Of a stretch of DNA of 64,000 nucleotides, positions 125 to 30,351 are shown in pieces (within the stretch, counting starts at the first letter, position 1; the number at the start of each line of letters is the position of its first letter). The notes under the pieces are model-generated. The model was given only the letters and a program-made list of their open reading frames with translations. It had not been told where the DNA came from and did no database searches. The translations under genes were made by a program, and so were the position numbers. The stretch spans positions 608,001 through 672,000 of the forward strand of contig JAFATB010000014.1 in NCBI GenBank assembly GCA_019244185.1, written 5' to 3'. The DNA is from Acidobacteriota bacterium. Its GTDB lineage: Bacteria; Acidobacteriota; Thermoanaerobaculia; Gp7-AA8.

Positions 125-145
125 ATCTCTCTACTCGCTGTATCG

Positions 146-182: not shown

Positions 183-386
183 ACGTCTGCGCTGACAGCG
201 GCAAATGAACGCTTGCGCATGGGTGGAACAGACGTTAAATTGTCTGGCGATCGTCCGAGAGAGATAACGAAGTCAACGCAGGCAAGTCGCCTTTCCGAGA
301 CCTTTTTGCGGAACGGCGGTGCGATTCATTCACGGTCCAACGGTTACGAACAAACGTTTCCTGCAGCGATCCGGAGGGGTTTCCGT

Positions 387-8061: not shown

Positions 8062-8076
8062 AAAGGAATCGCGATC

Positions 8077-8589: not shown

Positions 8590-8634
8590 TGCCATTGGTG
8601 GAAGCGCCGCATTCGCGAAAGAGAGGAGAAAACG

Positions 8635-11772: not shown

Positions 11773-12711
11773 ATGCAGGTCATCCTCCAGGGGAGTCTGC
11801 GGCACTTTCCGCCGGCAGAGCTCCTCTCGTTCCTGTCTCGCCGCGGGCAGCGCGGCACGCTCGATCTCGAGACCACCGGCCGCCGCGCGCGCATCGTCTT
11901 CGAGCGCGAAACGATCGTGGCCGCGGAGTCGAACAAGGCCAACGACGCACGTGACGCGGTGCTCGACGCGCTCTCCTGGCCCGGCGGCTCGTTCACGCTG
12001 CTCGACGATGCCGTATTGCCCGAGAACGCGGCCAAGCTCGCGCTGCCGCTCGATGCTCTTCTCGAAGAAGCGAAACGCCGCGCCGCCGCGGGCTCGGTCT
12101 ACGCCGACGCGACGAGCTTCCGCGTCATCGACGCGCCGTCGCTGCAGCAGCAGGTGAGTCTCACGGCCGAGGAGTTCAAGCTGTTGTTCCGCATCGCGAG
12201 CGGAAAGACGTTCGTCGAGCTCGTGACGGAGCTCGGCGTCCCGCGGCAGGAGCTCGCGGAGCGATTGCAGCGGCTCGAACAGATCGGACTCGTCGCCGCG
12301 ATGCGCGCGGAGCCGGGCACCGATCCGGGCGCGGAGAAGACGGCGCCGCAGGCCATGCTGCCGCGGCAGCGCACGCTCGTCGGCTCGCTCACGCCGGACG
12401 ACGCGCCCGACAGCGTGTGGCCGCTGCTCGACGCGGAGGCGACGATGGGCCGCGCGCCCGCGAATGCGATCGTCATTCAGGACGGCAGCGTGTCGTCGCG
12501 CCACGCGCGCATCGTGCGCGGCGCCGACGGCTTCTATCTCGAAGATCTGCAGAGCCGCAACGGCACGTTCGTGAACGGCGAGAAGGTCACCGAGAAGCGC
12601 CTCCTCGCCGACGGCGATCTCATTCGCCTCGGCAAGATCATCATGACGTTCAACGTCGCGCGCGAAGGGAAAGCGGGCGATACCACGCAGCCGGAGGTCC
12701 GGGTCGTGTAG
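11773..12711 (+). CDS. DUF4388-like N-terminal domain plus C-terminal FHA domain protein
   Basis: LQGSLRHFPPAELL...GTLDL (DUF4388/PATAN-like); FHA motifs GR, SSRH, SRNGTFVNG. Confidence 0.85.
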   Translation: MQVILQGSLRHFPPAELLSFLSRRGQRGTLDLETTGRRARIVFERETIVAAESNKANDARDAVLDALSWPGGSFTLLDDAVLPENAAKLALPLDALLEEAKRRAAAGSVYADATSFRVIDAPSLQQQVSLTAEEFKLLFRIASGKTFVELVTELGVPRQELAERLQRLEQIGLVAAMRAEPGTDPGAEKTAPQAMLPRQRTLVGSLTPDDAPDSVWPLLDAEATMGRAPANAIVIQDGSVSSRHARIVRGADGFYLEDLQSRNGTFVNGEKVTEKRLLADGDLIRLGKIIMTFNVAREGKAGDTTQPEVRVV

Positions 12712-12727
12712 CCCGCCCGGCGCGCCG

Positions 12728-15106
12728 ATGACCTCCTACGATCTGCTCATCGTCGGCTCCGGTCCCGCCGGTCTTGCCACCGCCTCGCACGCGCGGGACA
12801 ACGGCCTCGCGTACGCGCTCCTCGAACGCACCGATCATCTCGCCGACACGATCGACAGCTATCAGGCGCGCAAGTTCGTCATGGCCGAGCCGGTGATGAT
12901 CCCCGCGCGCGGCGAGCTGCCGTTCGAGGCCGGCTCGCGCGAGTCGATCCTCGACGCGTGGCAGCGCCATGTCGCGGAGAAGCAGCTCAACGTCGTCTTC
13001 AATGCCGAGGTCAAGTCGCTCGAGAAAAAAACGAGCGGCTTCGTCGTGAAGACCGCGGCAGGCGCGGTTTACGAGGCGAAGAACGTCGTACTCGCGATGG
13101 GGACGCAGGGCAACCCGCGCAAGCTCGGCGTGTCCGGCGACAGTCTGCCGCACGTGCGCTACCGGCTCGTCGATCCGGCGGAACATCAGGATGAAGACAT
13201 CCTCGTCGTCGGCGCGGGCGACTCCGCGCTCGAGATCGCGATCGCGCTCTCCGACGAGAACCGCGTCGGCCTCGTCGTGCGCGGCTCGGAGATCACGCGC
13301 GCGAACGAGATCCTCACGCGCGAAGTGCTCTCGCGGCAGGCCGCGGGACGGATGACGGTCTGGTACAACGCGACCGTTCGCGAAGTCTTCGAAGGCTACG
13401 CCGATCTCACCGTGCGCGGCGACGTCACGCGCGTGCCCGCGGAGCTCATCTTCCTCAAGCTCGGCGCCGATCCGCCGCGTCGCTTCTTCGAGGCCGCGGG
13501 CATCCGCTACAGCGGCGACGCGAAAGACGCGCGGCCGATCCTCAGCCCCGTGCACGAGTCGAGCGTGCCGGGACTCTTCCTCATCGGCGCGGCCAGCGGC
13601 CGCGATCTCATCAAGCTCGGCATGAACCAGGGGTGGGAAGTCGTCGAGCATCTGATGGGACGCGAGGTCGAGCCGGCGGACGAAGCGGTGCTCAAGGAGC
13701 GGCTGCCGTTCTGGAGCGGCTCCGTGCGCGAGCGCATCGCCGCGATCCGCAGCCGTGTGCCGCTGCTCGCCGCCGCCGACGAACAACAGCTGCGCGACAC
13801 GTTTCTCGCCACGCGCGTGCGCGAGTATCGCGACGGCGAGACGATCATCCGCCAGAACGACTACACGAACGACTTCCTCATCATCGTCGCCGGGCGCGTC
13901 GCGCTCTTTCGCCAGCCCGAGCAGTCGCAGAGCGAGGTCCGCATCGCCGAGCTCACCGCCGGCAACTTCTTCGGCGAGATGAGCCTCATCTCCGGCCGCC
14001 GCCGCACCGCCACGGCGCGCGCGGTGGGGGAGACGCGGATGATCGAGATTCCGCGCAAGGCCATTCTCAAGATGCTCGCGTCCGCGCCGCGCGCGAAGGC
14101 GCTCGTCGACCAGGCGTTCCTCCTGCGCGCGTTCGGCGGCTATCTCTTCCCCGGCGTTCCCGAGGCGCTCCTCGGCGAGCTCGTGGACAAGGCGGTCGTG
14201 CAGACGTTCGGCAAGGACGCGCCGGTCTTCAAGCAGGGCGACCACGCCGACGCGTTCTATCTGATCCGCAACGGCATGGTGAAGATCGCCAAGAAGTCGG
14301 GCGACAAGGAAGTCGTGCTGTCGTATCTCGTCGCGGGAAACTTCTTCGGCGAGGCGGCGCTCTTCTCCGACGCGAATCGCACGGCCAGCGTCACCACGAT
14401 CTTTCCGTCCGATCTCATCAAGCTCTCGAAGCGCGACTTCGACGCGTTCCTCGCCGCGCATCCCGATCTGCGCGAGGCGCCGCTGCGCAAGCTCGAGGAG
14501 CGCCGCATCGCCGGCCTCATCGCCGAGGGGACGCCGGGCTCCGGCAACATCCTCGGCGATCTCATTCGCGAGGAAGTGGTGATGGGGACGCAGACGCTGC
14601 TCATCGACGAGCACCGCTGCATCCGCTGCAACAACTGCATCCGCGCGTGCGAAGGCGTGCACGACGACGGACAGGCGCGCCTCTCGCTGACCGGCATCAA
14701 GCTCTACAACCTCCTCGCGCCGAACTCCTGCTGGCAGTGCGAGAACCCGCTGTGCATGCTCGACTGCCCGCCCGACGCGATCGCGCGCGATCCGCGCGGC
14801 GAGGTGTACATCAAGAGCAACTGCATCGGCTGCGGCAACTGCGAGCGCAACTGCCCCTACGGCAACATCTTCATGGTGCACAAGGAGCCGTCGCGCTCCG
14901 TCTTCTCCTGGATCAAAGCTCTCTTCCGCAAAGAGGCCGAGCCAAGCGCCGAACAGACCGTCGCCGTGAAGTGCGATCTCTGCCGCGGCATCAGCGGCGG
15001 CCCCGCGTGCGTGCGCGGATGCCCGACCGGAGCGGCGATCCGGCTGACGCCGGAGCAGTATCGGGAGACGCTGGAGGAGATCGTGATCTCACGAGGCGAG
15101 CGATGA
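12728..15106 (+). CDS. FAD/NAD(P)H oxidoreductase fused to two cNMP-binding domains and a DmsB/NrfC-type 4x[4Fe-4S] domain
   Basis: GSGPAG and GAGDSA Rossmann motifs; two FFGE...RTA cNMP cassettes; CIRCNNCIRAC, CWQC..PLCMLDCP, CIGCGNCERNCP, CDLC...ACVRGCP. Confidence 0.9.
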   Translation: MTSYDLLIVGSGPAGLATASHARDNGLAYALLERTDHLADTIDSYQARKFVMAEPVMIPARGELPFEAGSRESILDAWQRHVAEKQLNVVFNAEVKSLEKKTSGFVVKTAAGAVYEAKNVVLAMGTQGNPRKLGVSGDSLPHVRYRLVDPAEHQDEDILVVGAGDSALEIAIALSDENRVGLVVRGSEITRANEILTREVLSRQAAGRMTVWYNATVREVFEGYADLTVRGDVTRVPAELIFLKLGADPPRRFFEAAGIRYSGDAKDARPILSPVHESSVPGLFLIGAASGRDLIKLGMNQGWEVVEHLMGREVEPADEAVLKERLPFWSGSVRERIAAIRSRVPLLAAADEQQLRDTFLATRVREYRDGETIIRQNDYTNDFLIIVAGRVALFRQPEQSQSEVRIAELTAGNFFGEMSLISGRRRTATARAVGETRMIEIPRKAILKMLASAPRAKALVDQAFLLRAFGGYLFPGVPEALLGELVDKAVVQTFGKDAPVFKQGDHADAFYLIRNGMVKIAKKSGDKEVVLSYLVAGNFFGEAALFSDANRTASVTTIFPSDLIKLSKRDFDAFLAAHPDLREAPLRKLEERRIAGLIAEGTPGSGNILGDLIREEVVMGTQTLLIDEHRCIRCNNCIRACEGVHDDGQARLSLTGIKLYNLLAPNSCWQCENPLCMLDCPPDAIARDPRGEVYIKSNCIGCGNCERNCPYGNIFMVHKEPSRSVFSWIKALFRKEAEPSAEQTVAVKCDLCRGISGGPACVRGCPTGAAIRLTPEQYRETLEEIVISRGER

Positions 15107-15199
15107 ATGAAGAACGCAGAACGCAGAACGCAGAATTGAGAAAAGGGAGCCGGTTCTCCTTTCTTCATTCTTCGTTCTGCGTTCTGCGTTCTTCATTCA
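15104..15199. repeat. Palindromic intergenic element built from heptamer repeats (GAACGCA)n...(TTCTGCG)n
   Basis: TGAATGAAGAACGCAGAACGCAGAACGCAGAAT...ATTCTTCGTTCTGCGTTCTGCGTTCTTCATTCA; AT-rich relative to its flanks; related copy at 36858. Confidence 0.85.
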
Positions 15200-15212
15200 A
15201 GCGGAGGCCAGC

Positions 15213-16046
15213 ATGGCCGTAGCGCGGTCAGGTCCCTTCTGGCGCCGCACCTTCGTCCTCCTCCTCATCGCGCTCACCGCGTCCTACATCAACTACGCGC
15301 GCCGTGAGTTTCCGCACGGCGGCTCGCGCTACGGCCTCGCCTACGGCATCGGCGGCTCCGCGCTGATTCTGCTGCTGGCGTTCTTCGGCATCCGCAAGCG
15401 CTGGTATCGCTCGCGTTTCGGGACGCTCGAGCAATGGCTGCAGTCGCACATCTACCTCGGCGTGCTCGCGCTGGTCGTGCTCGTGTTCCACACCGGGATG
15501 CGCTTTCACGATCGCATCGCCGTGACGACGTTCGTGCTCGTCGTGATCGTCGTCGTCAGCGGGATCTTCGGCGCGATTCTGTACGTGACGCTGCCGCGGA
15601 TGCTGACGGAAGTCGAGAGCAATCTCACCGTCGATGAGATCTCCGAGCAGCTCAACCAGCTCGCGCGTTCGATGGCGCGCATCGCCTCGGGGCGCTCCGC
15701 AGCGTTCCAGCGGATCTACGACGAGCTCCTGCGGCAGTCGATGCCGCGCGGACTCGCGGGCTGGCGCCTGCTGCTCTCGGTCGGCAGCGCGCGCCGCAAG
15801 CAGCAGGAGACCTCGGATTGGGCGCGGCTGCTCGGGCTCGTGCCGATCGACGAGCAGGAAGAGCTGCGGCAGATGCTCGTCGTCTCGCGGCAGCGCAAAG
15901 AGCTCCTGCTGCGGCTCGTCTATCGCCAGCGCTACAAGAACGCGCTCGAGGCGTGGCTCTACGTGCACGTGCCGTTCACCATCGCGCTCATCGTCTTCGC
16001 CGTCGTGCACGTCGCGGCGGTGTTTTATTACGGGAGGGTCTGGTGA
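15213..16046 (+). CDS. Integral membrane protein with four helix-associated His (ferric reductase-like/cytochrome b-type)
   Basis: About 5 TM segments; WLQSHIYLG, FHTG, WLYVHVP, VHVAAV; GGAGG ribosome-binding site. Confidence 0.75.
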   Translation: MAVARSGPFWRRTFVLLLIALTASYINYARREFPHGGSRYGLAYGIGGSALILLLAFFGIRKRWYRSRFGTLEQWLQSHIYLGVLALVVLVFHTGMRFHDRIAVTTFVLVVIVVVSGIFGAILYVTLPRMLTEVESNLTVDEISEQLNQLARSMARIASGRSAAFQRIYDELLRQSMPRGLAGWRLLLSVGSARRKQQETSDWARLLGLVPIDEQEELRQMLVVSRQRKELLLRLVYRQRYKNALEAWLYVHVPFTIALIVFAVVHVAAVFYYGRVW

Positions 16047-18331
16047 GCTTTCTCATCCAGCGGACGGCCGGCCGCGGATTGACGCTCACGCAGGTGCAGG
16101 CGCCGGTGCTGCGCATCGGCCGCGGCACGAATCAGGAGCTGCGCTCCGAGAACCCCGCGGTCGCGCTCGAGCACGCGGTCATCGAAGTCGACAGCGCCGG
16201 CTACGTCATCACCGACAAGGGCTCGATCACCGGCACGTACGTCAATCGCCGGCCCGTCGAGTCGGCGCGTCTCGCGAAAGGCGACGTCATCGAGATCGGC
16301 GACCTCCGCGTCGAAGTGCAGCTCGCCGATCCCGCGAAACCGCTCTTCCTCCGCGTCGTCACCACGCGCGTCGCGACGGCGGTCGTCGTGGATGATGAAG
16401 AAGAGCACGCGGCCGCCGCGGCGGTCGTGGCGCCGGGCGCGCGCGTCGTGCGCGCGAAAAAGATCGATTACGCCGGCGCGTACCGCCTCGCGCGTCCGTA
16501 TCTGACGAAGCTCTCGCTCACGGCGATCCTGCTCATCCTCGCGCTCGGCCTCATCGGCGCGCTCGCGCAGCCGGAGAACCAGCGCTTCTTCCGCCCGGGC
16601 GACGTCTCGTCCGCGCACGCGCGCGCGGCGGGCGGCATCGGCGATCGCTGCGACGCGTGTCATACGCCGTGGCGCAGCGTCGACAACAACAAGTGCAAGA
16701 GCTGTCACGCGCAGCAGGCGCACGCGACGCTCGAGAAAGATCCGCCCGCGTGCTCGACGTGTCACGCCGAGCATCGCGCGCAGATGAAGCTCGCGAACCT
16801 CCCGCAGTCGCGCTGCACGAGCTGTCACGCGAACCTGGGCGCACACGTCGTCGCCGCGCCCGCGCAGCTCGTCGCGTTCCGCGCCGCGGACGACCGCTAC
16901 GACTTCGACGACATCGCGCACATCGCCTCGTTCGACACGCACCCCGACTTCCGCTATCTGCCCGACCGCGACACGCTGCGCTTCAACCACAAGCTCCATC
17001 TCGCGCCGCGCGGCATCTTCAACGCATCGGGCCGGCGCGAGATCCTGCAATGCGTGGGCTGCCACGAGCAGATCACCGTCAAAGGCAAGACCGATCCCGC
17101 GCCGATCCGGTTCGAGAAGCACTGCCAGCGCTGCCACCGCCTCACGTTCGACGCGCGTTTCGGCGACGCGGAAGTGCCGCACGGCGGCGATCCCGGCATC
17201 GTCTACGGGTTCGTCGTCGGCATGTACACCGGCAACCGCGACCTCGCGAGCAAGTCACCCGAGGAAGTGCGGCGGATGCTCACGACGGGGCGCGCGACGT
17301 CGAACGATCCGGGGGCGGTGCTGCACGCCGAGCAGGTCATCAAGACGAAGTGCACGAAGTGCCACGACGTGCAGCGCGCGGGCGCGCGGCTCGCGGTGAC
17401 GAAGCCGGTCCTCGCGTCGGTGTGGCTCACGCGCTCGCGCTTCTCGCACGGGCCGCATCGCAACGTCGCGTGCGAGAGCTGTCATCGCGCGTCGAACAGC
17501 GTCGCCACGAGCGACGTGATCATGCCGCACCGCGACGACTGCGTCACCTGTCACGCGCAGAACGCGAAGACGATGCAGGCGGCGAGCACATGCCTGGGCT
17601 GTCACGAGTATCATCAACACACCCAGAGACCGGTTGTGACGGCATCGCTCGCCCAGGCAGGAATGGGCGGGCTCGGAAGCGGAGGGCGAATGCTGCAGGG
17701 GATCCTGCTCGCGGTGATCGTGGTGTTGCTGCTGGTCGTGCTCGTGCCGGTCGGCATCGCTCTGTTCCAGCGGTTGCGTCCGGAGCGTTCCGCGCCCGCG
17801 CCGCGCGAGCGAGCGACGCCCGCGCCGCCGCCACCGCCGGCGATGCTCGCGCGTCCCGACGGCGTGACGGACAAGGTGCCGCGCCAGAGCGCGCCGCCTC
17901 CGCCCGATCTCACGCCGCGCGCCGCGGAAGCGCCCGCGCCGCCGTCCACGGTCGTCACGCCGATCCGCGAAGACACGGTCGTCAACCTCGACGAGCCGAA
18001 AGCTTCGAGCACGGAGATGGTGCAGTGGTACGGCATGCTGAACTGCACGGGCGGCCCGCTCGAAGGACAGCGCTTCATCATCGACGAGGCGGGCTTCTAC
18101 ATCGGCCGCGATCCCGCGCTCGCGAAAGTCGTGGTGCCCGACACGCGCGTTTCGAAGCGCCATCTGCGCATCGTGCCGCGCGACGGAAAAGTGTGGGCGA
18201 TCGATCAGGGCTCGACGAACGGAACGTTCCTCACGTCGGCGCCGACGCAGCGGATCACCGAGGTGCAGTTGAAGCGCGGCGATACGCTGGTGCTCGGGGA
18301 TAACGCGGCCACGTTCATCTATCAGATATGA
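16043..18331 (+). CDS. FHA - TM - decaheme cytochrome c - TM - Pro-rich linker - FHA protein
   Basis: GTG overlaps the upstream TGA; 10 CxxCH motifs (CDACH, CKSCH, CSTCH, CTSCH, CVGCH, CQRCH, CTKCH, CESCH, CVTCH, CLGCH); FHA-like domains at both ends. Confidence 0.88.
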   Translation: MSFLIQRTAGRGLTLTQVQAPVLRIGRGTNQELRSENPAVALEHAVIEVDSAGYVITDKGSITGTYVNRRPVESARLAKGDVIEIGDLRVEVQLADPAKPLFLRVVTTRVATAVVVDDEEEHAAAAAVVAPGARVVRAKKIDYAGAYRLARPYLTKLSLTAILLILALGLIGALAQPENQRFFRPGDVSSAHARAAGGIGDRCDACHTPWRSVDNNKCKSCHAQQAHATLEKDPPACSTCHAEHRAQMKLANLPQSRCTSCHANLGAHVVAAPAQLVAFRAADDRYDFDDIAHIASFDTHPDFRYLPDRDTLRFNHKLHLAPRGIFNASGRREILQCVGCHEQITVKGKTDPAPIRFEKHCQRCHRLTFDARFGDAEVPHGGDPGIVYGFVVGMYTGNRDLASKSPEEVRRMLTTGRATSNDPGAVLHAEQVIKTKCTKCHDVQRAGARLAVTKPVLASVWLTRSRFSHGPHRNVACESCHRASNSVATSDVIMPHRDDCVTCHAQNAKTMQAASTCLGCHEYHQHTQRPVVTASLAQAGMGGLGSGGRMLQGILLAVIVVLLLVVLVPVGIALFQRLRPERSAPAPRERATPAPPPPPAMLARPDGVTDKVPRQSAPPPPDLTPRAAEAPAPPSTVVTPIREDTVVNLDEPKASSTEMVQWYGMLNCTGGPLEGQRFIIDEAGFYIGRDPALAKVVVPDTRVSKRHLRIVPRDGKVWAIDQGSTNGTFLTSAPTQRITEVQLKRGDTLVLGDNAATFIYQI

Positions 18332-20061
18332 GACGCCTCGCCGCGGCACTCCTCGTCGCCGGGGTGGCGTGGTCGGCGGAAGCGGCGCGCGTGCGTGCGG
18401 TGCGCACGGGCGGCACGCCCGCGCCGGTGCCGCAGGCGATTCCGGTCTATCCGGAGCCGGCGGGTTGCGCGGTGCCGCCGGTGTTTCCCGGCGCGACGTG
18501 CAGTGAAGGCTCCGCGGCGTTCGCGGCGTTGCGCGACAACGAAGTCGACGCCGTCGTGCGCGCCGCGGCGAAAGCGCTCGACGTGCCGATGACCATCGCC
18601 GTCGTCGACCGCGCGGGACGCGTCCTCGCGCTCGCGCACAAGGCGGGAGCGGGCAGCGCGACGGACGATGATCTCGCCGTCGGTGTTGCGCGCACGGCCG
18701 CGTTCTTCAGCCACGACATGGCGCCGCTCTCGTCGCGCACCGTGCGCTTCCTCAGCGGCGTGCACTTTCCGCCCGGCATCACGAACACGCCCAGCGCCGC
18801 GCTGTACGGCATCGAGAACACGAACCGCGGCTGCGACATGAACCTCGACTTCGTCGCGGGGCAGTGTCTGCCCACGGCGCGCAGCGTGAACGGTTTGCCG
18901 TGCGACTCGACGAACGCGTCCGGCTGCGGCCCGGGTATCGTCACCGGGAAGGTCTTCCCGAACGACGCCGATCCGTCGAGCGTGAACGCCGGAGGAATTC
19001 CGCTGTACCGCGTCGACGCGAACGGCGGCGTCGTGTCGAATGGAAAGCTCGTCGGCGCGATCGGCATCAGCGGCGTCGGCGGCGACTCGCAGCGCGCGGA
19101 GTTCGCGTCGGTCAGCGGCGCATTCGGCTCGCTCGTCACCGGCATCGCGCCCGTGCCGTTCTATCCGCTGCCCGATCCCGGCAACGTCTTCATCGACGGC
19201 GTGCGCCTGCCGTTCCTCGGCCCCGATCTGCGCCTCACGTTCGCGAACGACGGTCTGCCGAACGGCGTGCGCCGGCTCGACGGCACGAGCGCCGGCACCG
19301 ACGCGACGCTCGTCTACGCGATCGCACCGGGCTTCGGCGGCTGCGCGCCGAACGGCTATCTCGTCGCGCCGCGTGCGAGCAGCGTGTCCGCGTTGAGCGC
19401 GGTCGACGTCGACACCATCGTGCAGCGCGCGATCGCGACGGCGAAGAAAACGCGCGCGGTCATCCGCCTGCCGCTCAACAGCTACGCGCGCATGGTCATC
19501 GCCGTGGCCGATACCGACGGAACGATTCTCGCGCTGTACCGCATGCCCGACGCGACGGTCTTCTCCGTCGACGTCGCGGTGGCGAAGTCACGCAACGTCG
19601 TCTACTTCAGCCAGCACGGCATCGGCTCGTCGGTGCCTGCGGGAACCGCGGTCAGCAACCGGACGATTGCATTCGGGGGCCAGCCGACGTTCCCCTCCGG
19701 CATCGACTCTCACGTCTTCGATCCGCGCGAAGGGCCGTGGTATCAGTCGCTCTTCGTCCACGACCTCGCCAATCCCTGCTCGCAGGGCACGCAGCCGGCG
19801 AACCCGAATCAGAACGGAATCGTCTTCTTCGCCGGCTCGACGCCGCTCTATCGCGGCTCGACGCTCGTCGGCGGCCTCGGCGTCAGCGGCGACGGCATCG
19901 AGCAGGACGACTACGTCTCATACTACGGCGCCGGCGAGCTTCTCCCGCCGCAGTCGATCTGGGCCGATCAAATCGTCGTCGACGGCGTGCGCCTGCCGAT
20001 GTTCAAGTTCCCCCGTCACCCGGAAGGAGTCACCGAGTGCGGAGGGCAGCCGTGCAGCTGA
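18328..20061 (+). CDS. Secreted heme-binding protein with two GlcG/HbpS-like domains
   Basis: Signal peptide; duplicated IAVVDRAG/IAVADTDG, ARTA/AKSRN and GAIGISG/GGLGVSG motifs. Confidence 0.8.
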   Translation: MRRLAAALLVAGVAWSAEAARVRAVRTGGTPAPVPQAIPVYPEPAGCAVPPVFPGATCSEGSAAFAALRDNEVDAVVRAAAKALDVPMTIAVVDRAGRVLALAHKAGAGSATDDDLAVGVARTAAFFSHDMAPLSSRTVRFLSGVHFPPGITNTPSAALYGIENTNRGCDMNLDFVAGQCLPTARSVNGLPCDSTNASGCGPGIVTGKVFPNDADPSSVNAGGIPLYRVDANGGVVSNGKLVGAIGISGVGGDSQRAEFASVSGAFGSLVTGIAPVPFYPLPDPGNVFIDGVRLPFLGPDLRLTFANDGLPNGVRRLDGTSAGTDATLVYAIAPGFGGCAPNGYLVAPRASSVSALSAVDVDTIVQRAIATAKKTRAVIRLPLNSYARMVIAVADTDGTILALYRMPDATVFSVDVAVAKSRNVVYFSQHGIGSSVPAGTAVSNRTIAFGGQPTFPSGIDSHVFDPREGPWYQSLFVHDLANPCSQGTQPANPNQNGIVFFAGSTPLYRGSTLVGGLGVSGDGIEQDDYVSYYGAGELLPPQSIWADQIVVDGVRLPMFKFPRHPEGVTECGGQPCS

Positions 20062-21974
20062 TCGCGGTCCTCGTCGCCACGCTCCTCGCGAACGGCGTCA
20101 TCTTCACCGACGAGATCCCCTTCACGCTCAACGGCACGACCGCGGCGGCGCCGGGCACGCGCGTCGTCGTGATGGTCGCCGGTGCGCGCGGCGAGACCGT
20201 CGTCGGCGCGGACGGCACGTGGTCGCTGCTCTGGACCGCTCCGCTGAAAACCGGGACGTATGACATCACGGTGGATGTCGGCGGAGCCGTCGAGACGCAA
20301 CTCCTGCGCGTGCAACTCCCCGGAATTCTGGCTCGCCAGCCGGGCATCGAGCCGTCCTTGCCGAAGTATGCCGAGCCGCCGCCGCCCGAGCCGTCGCTGC
20401 AGGAGATGACCGATCGCTGGCGGATCGTACCGCCGCCGTACGAGCTCGACGAGCACTCGCGCGGCCGTCTCGATCCGTACAACCAGAACGTCCTCAAGGG
20501 CGACTTTCCGATCAGCGGCAATGACACGTTCTTCGTGCTGACCGGCATCAGCGACACGCTCTCCGAAGCGCGCACGCTGCCGACGCCGAGCAACGTCAGC
20601 TCCGACCGGCCGGGGAGCTTCCGCTTCTTCGGACGCGACGCGCAGGGACTCTTCGTTCAGAACCTCATTCTCTCGGGCGATCTCTTCGAAGGCGACACCA
20701 CCTTTCAGCCGGTCAAGCAGCGCGTGAAGATGACGCTCGTCGCGAACGCGAACTACGTGCGCGTCGAAGAGAACGGCATCCTCAAACCCGACGTCCGCCG
20801 CGGCACCACGCGTGGCGACGGTCGTCTGTCGCTGCAGGAGCTCTTCTACGAGCGGCGCCTGCGCACGCTCTCGCCGAACTTCGACTTCGTCTCGTTCCGC
20901 GCCGGCATTCAGCCGTTCTCGAGCGACTTCCGCGGCTTCATCTTCTCCGACACGAACGCGGGCGTCCGCGGCTTCGGCAACCTGCGCGCGAATCGCATCC
21001 AGTACAACCTCGCGCTCTTCGACCGCCTCGAGAAAGACACGAACAGCGGCCTCAATCTGCTGAAGCGCCGCGACCAGCAGGTGCTCGTCGCGAACGTCTA
21101 CCTGCAGGACTTTTTCCGCCACGGCTACACGCAGTCGTTCTCGATCCACCACGTGCGCGACGGCGCGTCCGTCGCCTACGACCGCAACGGCGTGCTCGTG
21201 CGGCCGGCACCTGTCGGCGAAGCCAAGCCGCACGACGTCGAGGCGACCTACGTCGGCGAGGCGGGCCTCGGACACCTCGGCCGCTTCAACGTCGATCATG
21301 CCGCGTACTTTGTCTTCGGCCGCGACTCGCTCAATCCGATCGCCGGCGCCGATCCGCTGCTGCGCGGCCGCGACTCGGTGCGCATCGGCGCGGGGATGGC
21401 TGCGCTCGAAGTCTCCTACGATCACGACTGGCTGCGCCCGCGTCTCGGCTTCTTCTACGCGAGCGGCGACCGCAATCCGCGCGACCGCACCGCGCGCGGC
21501 TTTGATTCGATCTTCGACAACCCCGCGTTCGCCGGCGGCGGCTTCTCGTTCTTCAACCGCCTCGGCATCCGCTTCGCGTCGACCGGCGTCACGCTCGTCG
21601 ACCGCGGCAGCCTCCTGCCGTCGCTGCGCAGCAGCAAGGACGAAGGGCAGCCGAACTACGTCAACCCCGGCGTGCAGCTCGCGACGCTCGGTCTCGACGT
21701 CGACGTCACGCCGCGCCTCAAGGCCATCTTCACCGGCAACTACATCCGTTTCGATGCGACGGAGTCGCTCGAAGAGATTCTCTTCCAGGGCAACATCCGC
21801 AAAGACCTCGGCACCGATCTCAGCGCCGGCTTTCGCTACCGGCCGTTCCTCAGCAACAACATCGTCGTCGTCGGCGGGGCCGCGGTGCTGCTGCCCGGCC
21901 GCGGCTTCGCAGACATCTACGAGAAAAAAGACCCGCTGTACCACACGTTTGTGGACCTCATTCTTCAGTTCTGA
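20052..21974 (+). CDS. Putative outer-membrane beta-barrel with N-terminal Ig-like domain
   Basis: GGAGG then GTG overlapping the upstream gene; amphipathic beta-strands; ends TFVDLILQF (terminal Phe beta-signal). Confidence 0.7.
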   Translation: MQLIAVLVATLLANGVIFTDEIPFTLNGTTAAAPGTRVVVMVAGARGETVVGADGTWSLLWTAPLKTGTYDITVDVGGAVETQLLRVQLPGILARQPGIEPSLPKYAEPPPPEPSLQEMTDRWRIVPPPYELDEHSRGRLDPYNQNVLKGDFPISGNDTFFVLTGISDTLSEARTLPTPSNVSSDRPGSFRFFGRDAQGLFVQNLILSGDLFEGDTTFQPVKQRVKMTLVANANYVRVEENGILKPDVRRGTTRGDGRLSLQELFYERRLRTLSPNFDFVSFRAGIQPFSSDFRGFIFSDTNAGVRGFGNLRANRIQYNLALFDRLEKDTNSGLNLLKRRDQQVLVANVYLQDFFRHGYTQSFSIHHVRDGASVAYDRNGVLVRPAPVGEAKPHDVEATYVGEAGLGHLGRFNVDHAAYFVFGRDSLNPIAGADPLLRGRDSVRIGAGMAALEVSYDHDWLRPRLGFFYASGDRNPRDRTARGFDSIFDNPAFAGGGFSFFNRLGIRFASTGVTLVDRGSLLPSLRSSKDEGQPNYVNPGVQLATLGLDVDVTPRLKAIFTGNYIRFDATESLEEILFQGNIRKDLGTDLSAGFRYRPFLSNNIVVVGGAAVLLPGRGFADIYEKKDPLYHTFVDLILQF

Positions 21975-24900
21975 TGCGAAAGACGCTCATCGCCACCGCG
22001 CTCGCGGCCGCCGCTGCAACGATCCTCGCGCAAGCGCGCGACACGTCGTCGCCGGCGCCGATGCCGTCGCTGCGAACGCAGACGCAGGCGCAGGCCGACG
22101 CCAAGTCCGCCGGCTGCCTCACGTGTCATCACGGCATCGAGCCGATGCACGCGTCGGCCGCGGTGCGTCTCGGCTGCACCGACTGCCACGGCGGCGACGC
22201 GAGCGCGCGCACGAAAGAGGCGGCGCACGTGCAGCCGCGCGATCCGTCGCTCTGGAAGACCTCCGCGAATCCGCCGCGCACCTACACCGCGCTTTTGCGC
22301 GAGTCGCCCGAGTTCGTGAAGTTCATCAACCCCGGCGACCTCCGCGTCTCGCACGAGACGTGCGGCGGCTGCCACGCGAAAGAAACCGCCGCGGTGCCGC
22401 GCAGCACGATGACGACGAGCGCCGTCTTCTGGGCCGCCGTCGGCTACGCGAACGGCCTGCTCGGCCAGAAGCCCGCCTTCCTCGGCGAGTCGTACAACCG
22501 CGCCGGCAATCCGCAGATCCTCCTGCCCGCGACGCCGCCCACGCCCGCGCAGATCGCGAAAGGCGCGCTCCCGCGGCTCCTGCCGCTGCCGCGCTGGGAA
22601 ATCTTCCAGCCCGGCGAATACCTGCGCGCGTTCGAACGCGGCGGCTCCGCGAACAACACCATTCCGCCGGAGATCGGCAACCCGAGCGCGAACGACGAAG
22701 CCGGCCGTCCCGACATTCGCCTCGGCAATCGCGGACGCGGCACCGGCTCGCGCATCTCGCCCGGCCTCATCAACCTGCAGAAGACGCGGCTCAACGATCC
22801 GCATCTCTCGTTTCTCGGCACCAACGATCATCCTGGCGACTACCGCTCGTCCGGCTGCAGCGCGTGTCACGTCGTCTACGCGAACGACCGCGATCCGCTG
22901 CACTCCGCGTCGTTCGCGTCCGCGGGAAACACCGGACTCTCGCAAACCGGCGACCCGACCATCCCGAAGAACGAGAAAGGTCATCCGATCCGCCACCAGT
23001 TCACGCGCGCCGTGCCGACGAGCCAGTGCATGAGCTGCCACATGCATCAGCCGAACTCCTTCGTGAACACGTACCTCGGCTACACGATGTGGGACTACGA
23101 GACCGACGCGGAGCTCTTCTGGCCGAAGGAGCAGCGCCATCCGACGGAAGCGGAGAAGCGCGCGTCGCTCGATCACAATCCCGAGGGCGCGGCCGTGCGC
23201 GGGCTGTGGACGAATGTCGATTTTCTGGAGCGCGTTTCCGAGCTGAACGCAAAGGCGAAGCAGACGCAGTTCGCCGACTATCACGGCCACGGCTGGAACT
23301 TCATGGCCGTCTACAAACGCGATCGCAAGGGGAACCTGCTCGACGCGAACGATCGTGTCGTCGATTTCAACGATCCCGCGAAGTTCAGAAAAGCCGTGCA
23401 CCTGCAGGACATCCATCTCGAGAAGGGGATGCACTGCGTCGACTGCCACTTCTCGCAGGACGAGCACGGGAACGGGCAGCTGTACGGCGAGTACGGCAAC
23501 AACATCGAGATCGAGTGCCAGGACTGCCACGGCACGACGAACGCGTACACGAACCTGCGCACGTCCGGTCCCGCGGCGCCCGCGAACGGAACCGATCTCG
23601 CGATGGGCACGACGCCGTTCGGACGCCGACGCTTCGCGTGGGTGAACGGCACACTCTTCCAGCGCTCGATGCTCGACCCGAACCTGCAGTGGGAAGTCGT
23701 GCAGGTGAAGGACACCATCACGCCGGGACATCCGCGCTACAACGCGCGCTCCGCGTACGCGAAGACCATCCGGAACAGCGCAGGCGGCGTCGCGCACAGC
23801 GACGCGAAGATGACGTGCTACGCGTGCCATACGTCGTGGATGACGTCGTGCTCCGGCTGCCATCTGCCGCAGGAGCAGAACGCGAAGAGCGAGACGCATC
23901 ACTACGAGGGCACCGAGACGCGCAACTACGCCTCGTACAACCCGCAGGTCATCCGCACGGACGCCTTCATGCTCGGCGTGAACGGCACGACGAAGGGACA
24001 TCGCCTCGCGCCGGTGCGCTCGTCGAGCGCGCTCGTCATCAGCTCGACCAATCAGCTGCGCGACCGCATCTACATCCAGCAGCCGCCGATCGCCGCGTCG
24101 GGCTACAGCAGCCAGGCCTTCAACGCGCACGTGCCGCACACCGTTCGCGCGCGAGAGACGCAGGGCTGCGGCAGCTGCCACCTCACGAAAGAGAACGACA
24201 ACAATGCGTGGCTCGCGCAGCTGCTGCTGCAGGGCACGAACTTCGTGAACTTCATCGGCCGCTACGCGTACGTCGCGACCGGCAAGGAAGGCTTCGAAGC
24301 CGTTGCGGTGACGGGGTGGGACGAGCCGCAGGCGGTCATCGGCTCGTCGCTGCAGCGCATCGTCTATCCCGACGACTACGCGCGTCACGAGCGCAATCAC
24401 CGCGAGCTCGAGGTCGCGCATCACCACGATGCCGGCGACGCGCGCTCGATCCAGCTGCGCGGCGAGTACGTCTACGTCGCCAGCGGCGCGGATGGCTTCG
24501 CGGTGTACGACGTCGCGAACGTCGACAACAAGGACTTCTCCGAGCACATCACCAGCGCGCCGGTCTCGCCGCTCGGCCAGCGCACGTACGTGAAGACGAA
24601 GTTCGCCAGCGCCGTCGCGTTGCCGACGACGATGCCGATGGATCCGACGCGCAAGACGCAGTTCATCCCCGAGAACGAAGAGCAGCCGATCCATCCGCTC
24701 TATCGCTACGCGTACATCGCCGACCGCGAAGAAGGGTTGATCCTGGTCGACGTCGACACGCTCACCGACGCGAACCCGTCAAACAACTTCCTTGCCCGCG
24801 CGCTGACGTTCAATCCGAACGGCGCGCTCGCCGGCGCGAACAGCATCGCCGTCGCCGGACGCTGGCTCTTCATCGGCGCGCGCGACGCGCTCGTCGTCGT

Positions 24901-25549
24901 CGACATCGACAAGCCGCTGGCGCCGCGCATCGTGGCGACGCTCCCCGAGGTCAAGAACGCCACCGGTATCGGCGTGCAGTTCCGCTATGCGTTCGTCACC
25001 GACGCGCGCGGGCTGCATTCGATCGACATCACCGATCCCGCGCATCCGCGTATCGCCGCGAGCGTGCCGATCGAAAACGCGCGCAGCGTCTACGTCGCGC
25101 GCACGTATGCGTACGTTGCCGCGGGCAAGCGCGGCGTCGTGATCGTCGACGTCGAGCGTCCGGAGAAGCCGTTCGTCGACCAGACCTTCAGCGATGGCAT
25201 TCACGACGCGCACGACGTGAAAGTCGCGTCGACGAACGCCAGCACGTTCGCGTACGTCGCCGACGGCGAGGAAGGGCTGAAAGTCCTGCAACTCACGTCG
25301 CCCGAATGGACGCCCGGCTACGCCGGCTTCAGCCCGCGTCCCGCGCCGCGCCTCATCGCCGTGCGGCACACGCACGGTCCGGCGCTGGCGATCTCGAAGG
25401 GACTCGACCGCGACCGCGCGGTCGACGAGAGCGGCGATCAGGTCTCGACGTTCAACCGCATCGGCGCGCGCCCGATGACCCTTCCCGAGATGCAGCGCCT
25501 CTACCTGCGGAACGGCGCGATCTACACCGTCAGTGAGGAACCGAAATGA
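21974..25549 (+). CDS. Decaheme cytochrome c with C-terminal LVIVD-repeat beta-propeller
   Basis: Signal peptide; 10 CxxCH motifs (CLTCH, CTDCH, CGGCH, CSACH, CMSCH, CVDCH, CQDCH, CYACH, CSGCH, CGSCH); repeated YAYVA.G..G..xxDV units. Confidence 0.88.
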   Translation: MRKTLIATALAAAAATILAQARDTSSPAPMPSLRTQTQAQADAKSAGCLTCHHGIEPMHASAAVRLGCTDCHGGDASARTKEAAHVQPRDPSLWKTSANPPRTYTALLRESPEFVKFINPGDLRVSHETCGGCHAKETAAVPRSTMTTSAVFWAAVGYANGLLGQKPAFLGESYNRAGNPQILLPATPPTPAQIAKGALPRLLPLPRWEIFQPGEYLRAFERGGSANNTIPPEIGNPSANDEAGRPDIRLGNRGRGTGSRISPGLINLQKTRLNDPHLSFLGTNDHPGDYRSSGCSACHVVYANDRDPLHSASFASAGNTGLSQTGDPTIPKNEKGHPIRHQFTRAVPTSQCMSCHMHQPNSFVNTYLGYTMWDYETDAELFWPKEQRHPTEAEKRASLDHNPEGAAVRGLWTNVDFLERVSELNAKAKQTQFADYHGHGWNFMAVYKRDRKGNLLDANDRVVDFNDPAKFRKAVHLQDIHLEKGMHCVDCHFSQDEHGNGQLYGEYGNNIEIECQDCHGTTNAYTNLRTSGPAAPANGTDLAMGTTPFGRRRFAWVNGTLFQRSMLDPNLQWEVVQVKDTITPGHPRYNARSAYAKTIRNSAGGVAHSDAKMTCYACHTSWMTSCSGCHLPQEQNAKSETHHYEGTETRNYASYNPQVIRTDAFMLGVNGTTKGHRLAPVRSSSALVISSTNQLRDRIYIQQPPIAASGYSSQAFNAHVPHTVRARETQGCGSCHLTKENDNNAWLAQLLLQGTNFVNFIGRYAYVATGKEGFEAVAVTGWDEPQAVIGSSLQRIVYPDDYARHERNHRELEVAHHHDAGDARSIQLRGEYVYVASGADGFAVYDVANVDNKDFSEHITSAPVSPLGQRTYVKTKFASAVALPTTMPMDPTRKTQFIPENEEQPIHPLYRYAYIADREEGLILVDVDTLTDANPSNNFLARALTFNPNGALAGANSIAVAGRWLFIGARDALVVVDIDKPLAPRIVATLPEVKNATGIGVQFRYAFVTDARGLHSIDITDPAHPRIAASVPIENARSVYVARTYAYVAAGKRGVVIVDVERPEKPFVDQTFSDGIHDAHDVKVASTNASTFAYVADGEEGLKVLQLTSPEWTPGYAGFSPRPAPRLIAVRHTHGPALAISKGLDRDRAVDESGDQVSTFNRIGARPMTLPEMQRLYLRNGAIYTVSEEPK

Positions 25550-26859
25550 AACGCGTGAGCCTCGCGATCGCACTCTGCGCTGTCGTCGCCGTCGCCGCAC
25601 AGCAGCCGCCCGCCGCGCCGCCCGCACCAGCGCCCGAAGCCGCCGCGCCGTCGTCGACGCCTGGCCACTACGCCGGCGTGGCGTCCTGCGCGAACTCCGG
25701 CTGCCACGGCTCGACCCAGCCGCTCAACGCGACGCGCGTGCTGCAGAACGAGTACTACACCTGGCTCAATCACGATCGCCACGCCGGCGCGTACAACGTC
25801 CTCTTCAACCAGCTCTCCGCGCGCATCGCGAAGAACATGCGCCTGCGCAAGCACGCGTACGAGGAAGCGCTCTGCCTCGACTGTCACACCACGAACGTTC
25901 CCGCGTCGCTCGTCGAAGGACGCGTCGACGTCGAAGACGGCATCCAGTGCGAGGTCTGTCACGGCCCGGCCAGCGGCTGGCGCGCCGAGCACACGGAAGA
26001 AGGGTGGACGCACGCGCAGAGCGTCGCGCGCGGCATGATCGATCTGCGACGCATCTCCGCGCGCGCGCAGGTCTGCACGGCCTGTCACGTCGGCAGCGCG
26101 CGCAAGGAAGTCGACCACGAGCTGATCGCGTCGGGACATCCGCAGACGCCGTTCGAGCTCGATAACTTCACCGAGGTCGAGCCGCCGCACTGGACGCCGG
26201 GCAGGGAGACGCATGGCGTGCCGGCGTGGGCGGTGGGGCAGGTGGTCGCGTTCCGCGAGTCGCTCGACAACCTCGCGCGTCATGCGCGCGGCGAGAAGTG
26301 GCCCGAGTTCTCGGACATGAGCTGCTACAACTGCCATCACGATCTCAAGGACAGCCAGTGGCGGCAGGAGCGTGGCTGGCCGGATCGGGCCGGACTGCCC
26401 GCGTGGAGTCCGCAGCGCTGGGCCGTGCTGCGCTTGCTCGTGGGACGCGTGTCGCCGTCGTCGCGCGACGCGCTCGATCCGCTCGTCGCGCAGCTCGCGC
26501 GCAACGTCTCGCGCATGAACGATTCCGCGGCCGTCGCGGCGACGGCGGAGAACGTGCGTCGCGTCGTCGAGCCGCTCGTCGGAAAAGTCGAAGCGGCGCG
26601 CTGGAACGAAGGCGACGTCCGCGCGCTCATGGCGTCCATCACCGATGATCGCGGTGTCCTTGCCGACGTGCATTCCGCGCAGCAGGCCGCGCTCGCGCTG
26701 CAGAGCCTCGCCAGCGTGCTCACGCGCCGCGATCCGCGTCTGTTGCGCGGCGCGCTCGTGAAGTCGATCGACGCGCTCTTCGACGACGTGCAGAAGCGCG
26801 ACGAGTACGAGCCCGCGCGTTTCGCGCAGAAGCTGGCGGCGGTGAAAGCCGCGCTGTAG
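25546..26859 (+). CDS. Multiheme cytochrome c554-like protein
   Basis: Signal peptide; CANSGCH (CX4CH), CLDCH, GIQCEVCHGP, CTACH, CYNCH. Confidence 0.85.
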   Translation: MKRVSLAIALCAVVAVAAQQPPAAPPAPAPEAAAPSSTPGHYAGVASCANSGCHGSTQPLNATRVLQNEYYTWLNHDRHAGAYNVLFNQLSARIAKNMRLRKHAYEEALCLDCHTTNVPASLVEGRVDVEDGIQCEVCHGPASGWRAEHTEEGWTHAQSVARGMIDLRRISARAQVCTACHVGSARKEVDHELIASGHPQTPFELDNFTEVEPPHWTPGRETHGVPAWAVGQVVAFRESLDNLARHARGEKWPEFSDMSCYNCHHDLKDSQWRQERGWPDRAGLPAWSPQRWAVLRLLVGRVSPSSRDALDPLVAQLARNVSRMNDSAAVAATAENVRRVVEPLVGKVEAARWNEGDVRALMASITDDRGVLADVHSAQQAALALQSLASVLTRRDPRLLRGALVKSIDALFDDVQKRDEYEPARFAQKLAAVKAAL

Positions 26860-27422: not shown

Positions 27423-27442
27423 AAGTTCCTCAGGAGGAAGCG

Positions 27443-27937: not shown

Positions 27938-27946
27938 GGAGGCGCC

Positions 27947-28456: not shown

Positions 28457-28515
28457 GCCGCGTCTGCTGAAACTGATGTAAACGCGGCGATGTGCTGCGC
28501 TGTCCAAAGCGCATC

Positions 28516-30349: not shown

Positions 30350-30351
30350 TC

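Follow-up and report, generated by a model that had tools for sequence, protein, structure and literature searches.

A 64,000-nt stretch of the genome of a soil acidobacterium of the class Thermoanaerobaculia (assembly GCA_019244185.1, contig JAFATB010000014.1, positions 608,001 to 672,000; hereafter the window) contains eight co-directional genes at 11773-26859. We refer to them as g1 to g8:

11773..12711 (+). g1: cytoplasmic DUF4388 (PATAN-like) + weak HTH + FHA protein, 312 aa; candidate lineage-specific regulator.
12728..15106 (+). g2: cytoplasmic flavo-iron-sulfur protein, 792 aa, with a YpdA/TrxR-like FAD-NAD(P)H domain (1-300), two cNMP-binding domains (340-590) and a HycB/HydN-like 4x[4Fe-4S] domain (620-780); no signal peptide.
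15213..16046 (+). g3: inner-membrane protein, 277 aa, with 5 predicted TM helices and a cytoplasmic helical insert; putative di-heme b transmembrane carrier.
16043..18331 (+). g4: FHA, TM, periplasmic decaheme domain, TM, Pro-rich linker, FHA, 762 aa.
18328..20061 (+). g5: secreted tandem GlcG/HbpS-like protein, 577 aa, 10 Cys.
20052..21974 (+). g6: predicted outer-membrane protein with an N-terminal Ig-like beta-sandwich (9-87), a conserved linker (about 121-156), an 18-strand AlgE-like barrel (159-639) and a C-terminal Phe; the start may be 20037.
21974..25549 (+). g7: secreted decaheme cytochrome (about 40-780) fused to an LVIVD beta-propeller (about 800-1110) and a conserved C-terminal tail, 1191 aa; no lipobox.
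25546..26859 (+). g8: secreted c554-like cytochrome with 4 CxxCH and one Cx4CH motif and a helical non-heme C-terminal half, 437 aa.

Gaps of 16 nt and 106 nt separate g1 from g2 and g2 from g3, respectively, and the remaining junctions overlap: the g3 stop (16046) with the g4 GTG (16043), the g4 stop (18331) with the g5 ATG (18328), the g5 stop (20061) with the g6 GTG (20052), and the g7 stop (25549) with the g8 ATG (25546), while the g6 stop and g7 ATG share base 21974. An alternative GTG for g6 at 20037 has a better Shine-Dalgarno-like sequence, GGAAGGAG, and gives an RR-containing signal peptide.

Profile searches against Pfam identified DUF4388 (2.7e-14) and FHA (5e-21) in g1; Pyr_redox_3 (9.4e-37), two cNMP_binding stretches (3.1e-42) and Fer4 families in g2; two FHA stretches (7.9e-29) in g4; two HbpS-like stretches (7.9e-23) in g5; LVIVD (8.9e-24) in g7; and Cytochrome_C554 (1.4e-09) in g8. 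Only weak hits were obtained for g3, to Ni_hydr_CYTB (PF01292, prokaryotic cytochrome b561; 23.3 bits, cut-off 30.1) and DUF4405. No barrel family was detected in g6, which ends in LILQF. In g2, all 16 Cys fall in four 4-Cys cluster motifs, three of the CxxCxxCxxxC type and one CxxCx8CxxxC. Both g4 and g7 contain 10 CxxCH motifs and g8 has four plus a CANSGCH, for a total of 24 + 1 heme motifs. The gene content, overlaps, domains and heme count reported in the first-pass annotation are thus confirmed.

To determine whether the genes form a conserved unit, we examined related loci. The cluster is such a unit: all 8 loci from kin genomes are collinear, and g1 lies upstream of g2 in the 7 whose contig reaches that far. 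Among 39 loci with 10 kb of upstream sequence, including Nitrospirota, Holophagales and a gammaproteobacterium, g2-g7 are collinear in 34 and 37 hold g2-g8; g6 is adjacent to g7 in 59 of 62. Homologues of g5 occur in most loci that reach upstream of g6, but none was detected in three loci (L084, L086 and L089) and the gene is relocated to the opposite strand in three others (L062, L075 and L082). Because the same genes recur in the same order in other genomes and phyla, the arrangement is far beyond chance.

The inner-membrane portion of the cluster is consistent with an electron donor module. Since g2 lacks a signal peptide and its Rossmann motif starts at residue 8, its FeS domain is cytoplasmic. 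The FAD domain resembles YpdA/TrxR-type reductases (7a7b, 2.7e-18; 2zbw, 8.1e-12), both GxGxxG/A motifs are kept, and the four Cys motifs are invariant in 21 sequences. In g3, H79, H93, H252 and H266 form two Hx13H pairs that are invariant in 20 sequences from at least 5 phyla. This matches the pattern of ferric reductase domains (NOX/FRE), in which two His pairs 12-13 residues apart lie in two TM helices, although g3 has no PF01794 hit at E <= 0.01. The g3 model (pLDDT 80.5) retrieved only generic helical bundles in fold searches, and its VIA scores to cytochrome b561 (4o6y, Z 8.6) and CybB (5oc0, Z 8.1) are within the range of such bundles. The nearest atlas clusters are auto-named "Ferric reductase like transmembrane component", which we regard only as a lead. 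Heme b binding by g3 is therefore a hypothesis.

Two further observations bear on a link between g2 and g3. First, a 739-aa protein, P0129, joins a ferredoxin, a g2-like FAD domain (35% identity, 8e-37) and a g3-like membrane domain (27%, 3e-07) in one chain, although it is the only such fusion found and comes from one contig. Second, complex prediction of g3 with g2 residues 605-792 gave a score of 0.60, compared to 0.02 for the best of 3 controls, with at least 89% of contacts agreeing between runs and partner pLDDT of at least 73. This support is weak: the mark was reached by 58 of 80 solved complexes and 2 of 110 mismatched pairs, but scores of 0.60 or under were seen in only 7 of those 80 and in both mismatches that passed. 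Downstream of g3, hydropathy places TM segments of g4 at 152-179 and 544-580, indicating an N-in/C-in topology with a periplasmic decaheme loop, and 16 of 17 g4 homologue ORFs have 10 CxxCH.

We next asked whether g6 folds as a barrel. An AlphaFold2 model (pLDDT 76.0, pTM 0.68) contains 18 long strands, and the best structural match is the alginate exporter AlgE (Foldseek E 7.0e-16, TM by target 0.64-0.71; VIA Z 27.7, rmsd 3.0 over 365 aligned residues), followed by OccD/OpdQ (Z 25.9) and chitoporin (Z 22.1). Identity to AlgE is 13-14%, there is no PF13372 hit at E <= 0.01, no alginate genes lie nearby, and g6 has an extra N-terminal Ig-like domain and conserved linker. Atlas neighbors are auto-named "Alginate export family", again only a lead. 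The barrel carries a highly conserved internal loop (471-540), so it may be too narrow or plugged for a heme domain.

The secreted cytochromes are also well conserved. In g7, all ten CxxCH are invariant, mean column identity is 60% across 21 sequences from several phyla, and identity between phyla is 55-59%. Of the g8 homologues with long alignments, 59 of 60 keep 4 CxxCH + Cx4CH. None of the cytochromes has a lipobox: the g7 signal peptide has no Cys, and g8 Cys11 is not in a lipobox. There is consequently no candidate surface lipoprotein cytochrome. Cytochrome c maturation genes are present.

The domains that might control this system are less uniform. Both cNMP pockets of g2 have the canonical phosphate-binding cassette, with Gly-Glu and Arg-Thr/Ser-Ala (FGEMSL..RRTAT and FGEAAL..NRTAS), but the key Arg is lost in Bacteroidota, Chlorobi and Zixibacteria homologues. 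The phosphothreonine-pocket residues of FHA domains (GR, SxxH, NG) are found in g1 and the g4 C-terminal FHA, whereas the g4 N-terminal FHA has Ala for Ser and Thr for Asn. Only two of the three FHA domains therefore look phospho-competent. No kinase or cyclase gene lies in the window.

Comparison with known systems revealed partial resemblances. As in the MtrCAB, PioAB and MtoAB conduits, an outer-membrane barrel is encoded next to a secreted decaheme cytochrome with additional periplasmic multiheme partners. However, MtrB_PioB barrels (PF11854) are large, with about 26 strands, and no PF11854 hit was found in g6 or anywhere in the genome. The MtrA/DmsE model (TIGR03508) hits only g8, at 18.9 bits against a cut-off of 192.2, with no hit to g4 or g7, and the MtrC/OmcA-type model PF22113 scores 21.7 bits (g4) and 28.7 bits (g8), below its cut-off of 30. 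Input would come from a cytoplasmic NAD(P)H flavo-FeS protein and a di-His membrane protein, where Mtr uses a quinol dehydrogenase. The Geobacter extHIJKLMNOPQS cluster (PMC5877670) likewise holds a porin-like protein, several multiheme cytochromes and membrane redox subunits. Residues 472-674 of g7 align with positions 251-444 of ExtM (GSU2935; NF040943, 2.5e-22), but the score is 78.9 bits against a cut-off of 800, ExtM has 12 hemes and no propeller, and the inner part of Ext is Rieske/cytochrome b and so quinol-linked. Overall, no Mtr, Pcc/Ext, Nrf or Hao family model matched above its cut-off.

Among the closest described systems is ptdABCDEFG, a related putative porin-cytochrome operon named in a 2024 preprint with unknown function (bioRxiv 10.1101/2023.11.21.568154). 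It is reported from saline habitats, in Nitrospirales, Gamma- and Alphaproteobacteria and Planctomycetes. Its FAD/NAD(P) oxidoreductase (PtdC), cNMP-binding FeS protein (PtdE), ferric-reductase-like membrane protein (PtdF), periplasmic decaheme (PtdG) and porin (PtdB) have counterparts, at the domain level only, in g2, g3, g4 and g6; it also has a tetraheme (PtdD). PtdC and PtdE are separate genes, and g2 fuses them. The outer cytochrome PtdA is described as a pentaheme with a beta-sandwich, and the gene next to the barrel here encodes a decaheme-LVIVD propeller. No tandem GlcG, FHA or DUF4388 is described in ptd.

Taken together, these results only partly support the interpretation in the first-pass annotation, which proposed an undescribed, signal-gated conduit running from NAD(P)H through FAD, FeS, heme b and periplasmic hemes to the outer membrane. 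Two checks it had named, gene co-occurrence and the barrel fold, came out in its favor, as did the absence of any match above cut-off to Mtr, Pcc/Ext, Nrf or Hao family models, and the proposed NAD(P)H-FAD-FeS-heme b link gained support. On the other hand, an MtrAB-style heme wire through an 18-strand AlgE/OccD-like barrel is not shown, signal gating is inference, and "undescribed" must be qualified by ptd.

Our preferred reading, to which we assign a probability of about 0.5, is a two-module electron-transfer machine that bypasses the quinone pool. In the inner module, g2 would oxidize NAD(P)H at its thioredoxin-reductase-type FAD domain and pass electrons along four [4Fe-4S] clusters to g3, which would hold two b hemes, one above the other, between its two His pairs. 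From there electrons would enter the ten c hemes of membrane-tethered g4. In the outer module, they would move on, perhaps via the five-heme g8, to the ten hemes of g7, which would sit with g5 at the g6 barrel. The net direction would be outward, spending reducing power without conserving energy on an acceptor at, beyond or just under the outer membrane. The logic is that of eukaryotic and bacterial NOX/FRE enzymes, which carry electrons from NAD(P)H through FAD and two stacked b hemes out of the cytoplasm without quinones. Here, however, g3 has 5 predicted helices, the dehydrogenase is a separate TrxR-type flavoprotein with four FeS clusters and cNMP domains, and the acceptor would be a c-heme chain rather than O2 or Fe(III) directly. 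In this lineage, the cNMP domains between the FAD and FeS domains of g2 and the canonical FHA domains of g1 and the g4 C-terminus most likely throttle the flux. The analysis itself establishes the gene content, its conservation, the predicted barrel fold and the conserved ligand residues; heme b binding by g3, the order of carriers, the direction, the acceptor, passage across the outer membrane and all regulation are inferred. Direction, in particular, is our inference from the membrane potential, which favors exporting electrons from a negative-inside cell and not importing them to make NAD(P)H. Some observations sit less easily with this model. The strong conservation of g7 is more like that of an enzyme or a many-partner subunit than a surface electron outlet. 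The genome encodes three heme-copper oxidases and many carriers elsewhere are Nitrospira-type aerobes, so metal respiration is not an obvious need. No expression data were found.

A less likely alternative is that the same NAD(P)H-fed chain ends at g7 inside the periplasm, where the decaheme-propeller reduces a soluble oxidant, for example an oxyanion such as selenite or tellurite, a nitrogen oxide or a peroxide, that enters through g6 acting as an ordinary substrate channel. In this view, nothing crosses the outer membrane as electrons. The resemblance of g6 to 18-strand substrate channels and exporters, the strong conservation of g7 and the aerobic carriers favor this idea. The only family hit of g7 is ExtM, from a cluster linked to selenite/tellurite reduction; there is also a marginal profile hit to octaheme nitrite reductases (E 0.0088 over about 50 residues), and the ptd preprint considers a nitrogen-cycle role. 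However, both matches are short and far below cut-offs. Moreover, the g7 heme domain has 15 invariant His besides the ten motif His, enough to give all ten hemes a second axial ligand, so no open catalytic heme is evident, and the propeller has no Cys and only two invariant His, so there is no obvious metal site.

The first-pass annotation held that the cluster could equally be a redox-sensing signal transducer, in which the periplasmic hemes of g4, with g7/g8, sense envelope redox state, the FHA, DUF4388 and cNMP domains relay it, and electron flux is incidental. The sensor-like topology of g4, with a periplasmic cofactor domain between TM helices and cytoplasmic FHA domains, the purely signaling domains of g1 and the redox- or heme-sensing role of HbpS-like proteins (from the family name only) are compatible with this. 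We consider it unlikely, as a complete donor chain of FAD, four invariant FeS motifs and four invariant His is conserved across phyla, while g1, the C-terminal FHA and intact cNMP pockets are not. About 25 hemes and an outer-membrane barrel are excessive for sensing, and no kinase, transcription factor or output enzyme is conserved in the cluster. Least likely is inward uptake of electrons from extracellular Fe(II), minerals or humics: although the carriers are in principle reversible and PioAB/MtoAB-type two-component conduits work inward, flow to NAD(P)+ would be uphill in redox terms and opposed by the membrane potential, no coupling subunit is encoded, and no carbon-fixation or Fe-oxidizer context was seen in the window.

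A bolder and more doubtful version of our reading also remains compatible with the data. In this version, the cluster is a bacterial counterpart of NOX/FRE enzymes extended across the whole envelope, with a flavo-polyferredoxin, a di-heme b membrane subunit, about 25 c hemes and a small outer-membrane barrel. Its flux would be set allosterically by cyclic nucleotide and, in this lineage, also by phosphothreonine signaling. Aerobic soil, freshwater and marine bacteria of many phyla would use it to reduce something outside the cytoplasm: Fe(III) or Mn oxides for acquisition, humics, or O2 to extracellular superoxide.

The family is abundant. At least 8000 clusters at 90% identity scored E <= 1e-10, the 120 best are all unnamed or "hypothetical protein", and 469 confirmed stretches were found in species-representative genomes. 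It sits mostly in aerobes, where known metal-respiration conduits are not expected. If the chain works as we read it, it is a route for electrons from cytoplasmic NAD(P)H to the cell envelope that bypasses quinones, and no such route has been shown for any characterized bacterial extracellular electron-transfer system. The cluster offers a defined case of a cNMP domain inserted between two redox domains, and a concrete, testable candidate for regulated extracellular reduction in soil Acidobacteriota, Nitrospirota and other phyla.

The eight-gene cluster lies in the window at 608001-672000 of its contig, in a genome of 5.3 Mb and 26 contigs. Eight + strand ORFs occupy 11773-26859, and the junctions between them are those given in the first-pass annotation: 16043/16046, 18328/18331, 20052/20061, a shared base at 21974, and 25546/25549. 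In addition, g1 and g2 are 16 nt apart, and g2 and g3 are 106 nt apart. For g6, a GTG at 20037 preceded by GGAAGGAG is an equally good or better start than the one at 20052. Profile searches with Pfam and NCBIfam confirmed every domain that the first-pass annotation had named, although g3 and the g6 barrel have no family above cut-off. The genes and their neighbors in the window are as follows.

105-7502 (+): a 2465-aa ORF with cadherin-like and Big_9 domains, probably a giant surface adhesin
8062-9153: small phage-tail-collar (PF07484) protein(s)
10777-11754 (+): a Kir-type K+ channel (IRK + IRK_C domains), 18 nt upstream of g1
11773-26859 (+): the eight-gene cluster, comprising
g1: DUF4388 + FHA
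g2: a YpdA/TrxR-like FAD-NAD(P)H domain, two cNMP-binding domains and a HydN/HycB-like ferredoxin domain, with all 16 Cys in four 4-Cys cluster motifs
g3: membrane protein with no family above cut-off
g4: FHA, ten CxxCH, FHA
g5: two HbpS-like stretches
g6: predicted barrel with no family above cut-off
g7: ten CxxCH + LVIVD
g8: Cytochrome_C554 with four CxxCH and one CANSGCH
26925-28456: small phage-tail-collar (PF07484) protein(s)
28492-31734 (+): a 1080-aa ORF carrying both PSCyt2 (84-286) and DUF1501 (677-1062)

Together the cytochromes hold 24 canonical haem motifs plus one atypical motif. The collar proteins flank the cluster on both sides, and collar paralogues also follow g8 in three related loci (L015, L020 and L034). 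The cluster may sit inside, or beside, an array of such genes. PSCyt2 and DUF1501 are usually encoded by two neighboring genes. Because a GC3 screen flags a different frame for part of the 1080-aa ORF, either a frameshift or a fusion is possible. A promoter scan found 0 sites, and the 11 terminator-like sites that it found, against 9.0 +/- 3.8 in shuffled sequence, are uninformative. A search for sequencing runs found five with DNA and none with RNA.

To determine how widely the cluster is carried, we searched for g7. A match, either full-length or cut or split by assembly, is found in 20 of 24 sampled genomes of the same genus; one of these, G009, holds only a C-terminal fragment at a contig end. 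No match was found in G011, G014, G018 and G021, which are 90-100% complete. Two of the 20 (G002 and G024) are unpublished genomes, and without them the count is 18 of 22. A match is also found in 2 of 2 genomes of another family of the order. In an even draw of the phylum, 17 of 151 genomes (16 of 106 genera) carry the g7 haem domain at E <= 1e-30; one of these, G087, is unpublished, and without it the count is 16 of 150. The distribution is therefore patchy. Among species-representative genomes, 469 of 526 pattern matches were confirmed as relatives, and the best 80 were kept. Most are Thermoanaerobaculia or Acidobacteriota, but full-length relatives at 54-62% identity are labelled as Binatia, Zixibacteriota, Cytophagia/Bacteroidota, Chlorobi, Nitrospira/Nitrospirales, Holophagales and Halioglobus. 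A protein database search returned at least 8000 clusters at E <= 1e-10, and the 120 best are all unnamed or "hypothetical protein."

The gene order is also conserved. In 8 loci taken from kin genomes, every gene that the contig could hold is present in the same order; six of these loci hold g1-g8 entire, and two are cut by contig ends. In one kin locus (L017, on contig C2 of the 4-contig assembly G003), the g2 and g7 homologues align in several separate tblastn pieces, suggesting frameshifts in that assembly. Of the 80 loci from species-representative genomes, 39 have a full 10 kb upstream of g7. In 34 of these g2-g3-g4-g5-g6-g7 are collinear, and 37 have all of g2-g8 somewhere in the locus. 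The exceptions are L062 and L082, in which g5 has moved to the other strand; L090 and L094, in which the inner genes lie downstream of g8; L071, in which no g2-g4 was found; and L095, which has no g8. In L071, g5-g6-g7-g8 are present but the search found no g2-g4 in the 6 kb upstream of g5, so the outer module can apparently occur without the adjacent inner module. Gene g6 lies within 400 nt upstream of g7 in 59 of 62 loci with room for it. These 80 loci are the best-scoring of 469 and therefore over-represent close kin. The K+ channel gene just upstream of g1 was found in none of the 88 related loci, ruling it out as part of the unit.

What varies among the loci is informative. In Bacteroidota, Chlorobi and Zixibacteria, the g2 homologue lacks the FAD domain. 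Outside the near kin of the window, g4 lacks the second TM helix and the C-terminal FHA. In distant phyla, g6 lacks the N-terminal Ig-like domain and g8 is a shorter trihaem protein. The invariant core therefore consists of a cNMP-like/FeS protein, g3, a TM-anchored decahaem, a tandem GlcG, a barrel and a decahaem-propeller.

The predicted inner module begins with g2, which starts directly with its dinucleotide-binding motif and has no signal peptide. Its four clusters are therefore cytoplasmic, unlike those of NrfC/DmsB-type subunits. The FAD domain has no Cys and resembles YpdA and TrxR-like reductases. g3 models as five TM helices with a cytoplasmic helical insert (pLDDT 80.5). In 20 sequences from at least five phyla, only 18 columns are invariant, and four of them are H79, H93, H252 and H266, an Hx13H pattern in each of two TM helices. 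With the positive-inside loops, this places one His pair near each membrane face, the arrangement that holds two stacked b haems in ferric-reductase-domain and cytochrome b561 proteins. Fold searches could not decide the family: Foldseek found nothing at E <= 0.001, VIA gave only generic helical bundles, and no NOX/FRD chain appeared among the best matches. g4 has hydrophobic segments at 152-179 and 544-580 flanking the ten haem motifs, so its haems are periplasmic and both FHA domains are cytoplasmic.

Three independent hints link g2 to g3. First, their adjacency is fixed. Second, a 739-aa natural protein (P0129), a single sequence from one contig, joins a ferredoxin, a g2-like FAD domain and a g3-like membrane domain in one chain, a NOX-like fusion without cNMP domains. 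Third, a complex prediction of g3 with g2 residues 605-792 scored 0.60 against 0.02 for the best of three controls, with contact agreement of at least 89% and partner pLDDT of at least 73. This score is graded as weak support: the mark was reached by 58 of 80 solved complexes and 2 of 110 mismatches, but scores of 0.60 or under were seen in only 7 of those 80 and in both mismatches that passed.

In the predicted outer module, the g6 model (pLDDT 76.0, pTM 0.68) has a beta-sandwich (9-87), a linker and 18 long strands (159-639) with a conserved loop at 471-540. The linker is modelled with low confidence, but its sequence is nevertheless among the most conserved parts (R122, W123, P142, Y143 and K149-D151 are invariant). 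A search of the PDB with the g6 sequence gave nothing at E <= 1. The best structural matches are AlgE (Foldseek E 7.0e-16; VIA Z 27.7, rmsd 3.0, 365 aligned) and then 18-strand porins (MOMP Z 26.1, OccD/OpdQ Z 25.9), and MtrB did not appear among the best matches. The barrel fold had been set beforehand as a condition that could refute the proposal, and g6 does model as a barrel, but not one of the Mtr/Pio kind. The genome has no MtrB_PioB gene.

g5, g7 and g8 have Sec-type signal peptides and no lipobox. A surface lipoprotein cytochrome, as in Mtr or Pcc systems, is therefore absent. g7 is strikingly conserved: 21 sequences from several phyla give 60% mean column identity, and all ten CxxCH, 15 further His in the haem domain and a C-terminal tail (about 1110-1170) are invariant. 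We considered a metal site in the propeller and rejected it, because the propeller has no Cys and only two invariant His. g7 has no solved relative by sequence. A sequence search of the PDB gave nothing at E <= 1, and its profile gave only marginal hits to octahaem nitrite reductase (0.0088) and YncE (0.084). Its only family hit is a partial match to ExtM, at 78.9 bits against a cut-off of 800. g8 keeps 4 CxxCH + Cx4CH in 59 of 60 homologues with long alignments.

The first-pass annotation also proposed that the chain is controlled by cyclic nucleotides and Ser/Thr phosphorylation. Both cNMP domains of g2 have an intact phosphate-binding cassette here and in other Acidobacteriota, but the key Arg is replaced in Bacteroidota, Chlorobi and Zixibacteria and only partly kept in Nitrospirota. 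The FHA domains of g1 and of the g4 C-terminus have the canonical GR/SxxH/NG residues. In contrast, the widely conserved N-terminal FHA of g4 has Ala for Ser and Thr for Asn in Acidobacteriota and is degenerate in Halioglobus, and may therefore be a phospho-independent docking domain. The genome has one class III cyclase and about 35 Hanks-type kinase genes, none of them in the window. Gating by cNMP and phosphothreonine is thus plausible for this lineage, but it is an inference, and it is not a universal property of the family.

Full-text searches for this architecture, limited to one collection of papers, found a single relevant description (bioRxiv 10.1101/2023.11.21.568154). It names ptdABCDEFG, a putative porin-cytochrome operon "of unknown function," which as described shares the FAD, cNMP/FeS, ferric-reductase-like, decahaem and porin parts and has a different outer cytochrome. 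The uet cluster of Tenderiales (10.1101/2022.05.06.490989) is a different gene set, with an undecahaem, trihaems and NHL proteins, and its LVIVD protein is unrelated to its cytochromes. The Geobacter ext cluster (PMC5877670; PMC11976967) is likewise a different system.

Taken together, the observation made in the first-pass annotation is confirmed: the cluster is a real, conserved, multi-phylum unit, with no experimental characterisation. Its interpretation is supported in part. The electron path that it proposed is the best reading for the inner half, where we consider it somewhat more likely than not, whereas passage across the outer membrane is on present evidence only a possibility. We put the reading as a whole at about 0.5. 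The main rival, a periplasmic reductase fed by the same chain, seems unlikely but is not dismissed. The analysis itself establishes the gene content, its conservation across phyla and the invariant residues, while the binding of b haems by g3, the direction of flow and the gating are inferred. What this window adds is the fused g2, the double-FHA g4 and g1.

The genome encodes three haem-copper oxidase subunit I genes and cytochrome c maturation genes. In the proposed chain, electrons would leave a negative-inside cytoplasm from NAD(P)H without passing quinones or a pump. We therefore infer that the chain should run outward and dissipate energy instead of conserving it, which fits tight regulation and a role in acquisition, detoxification or redox balancing, not respiration.
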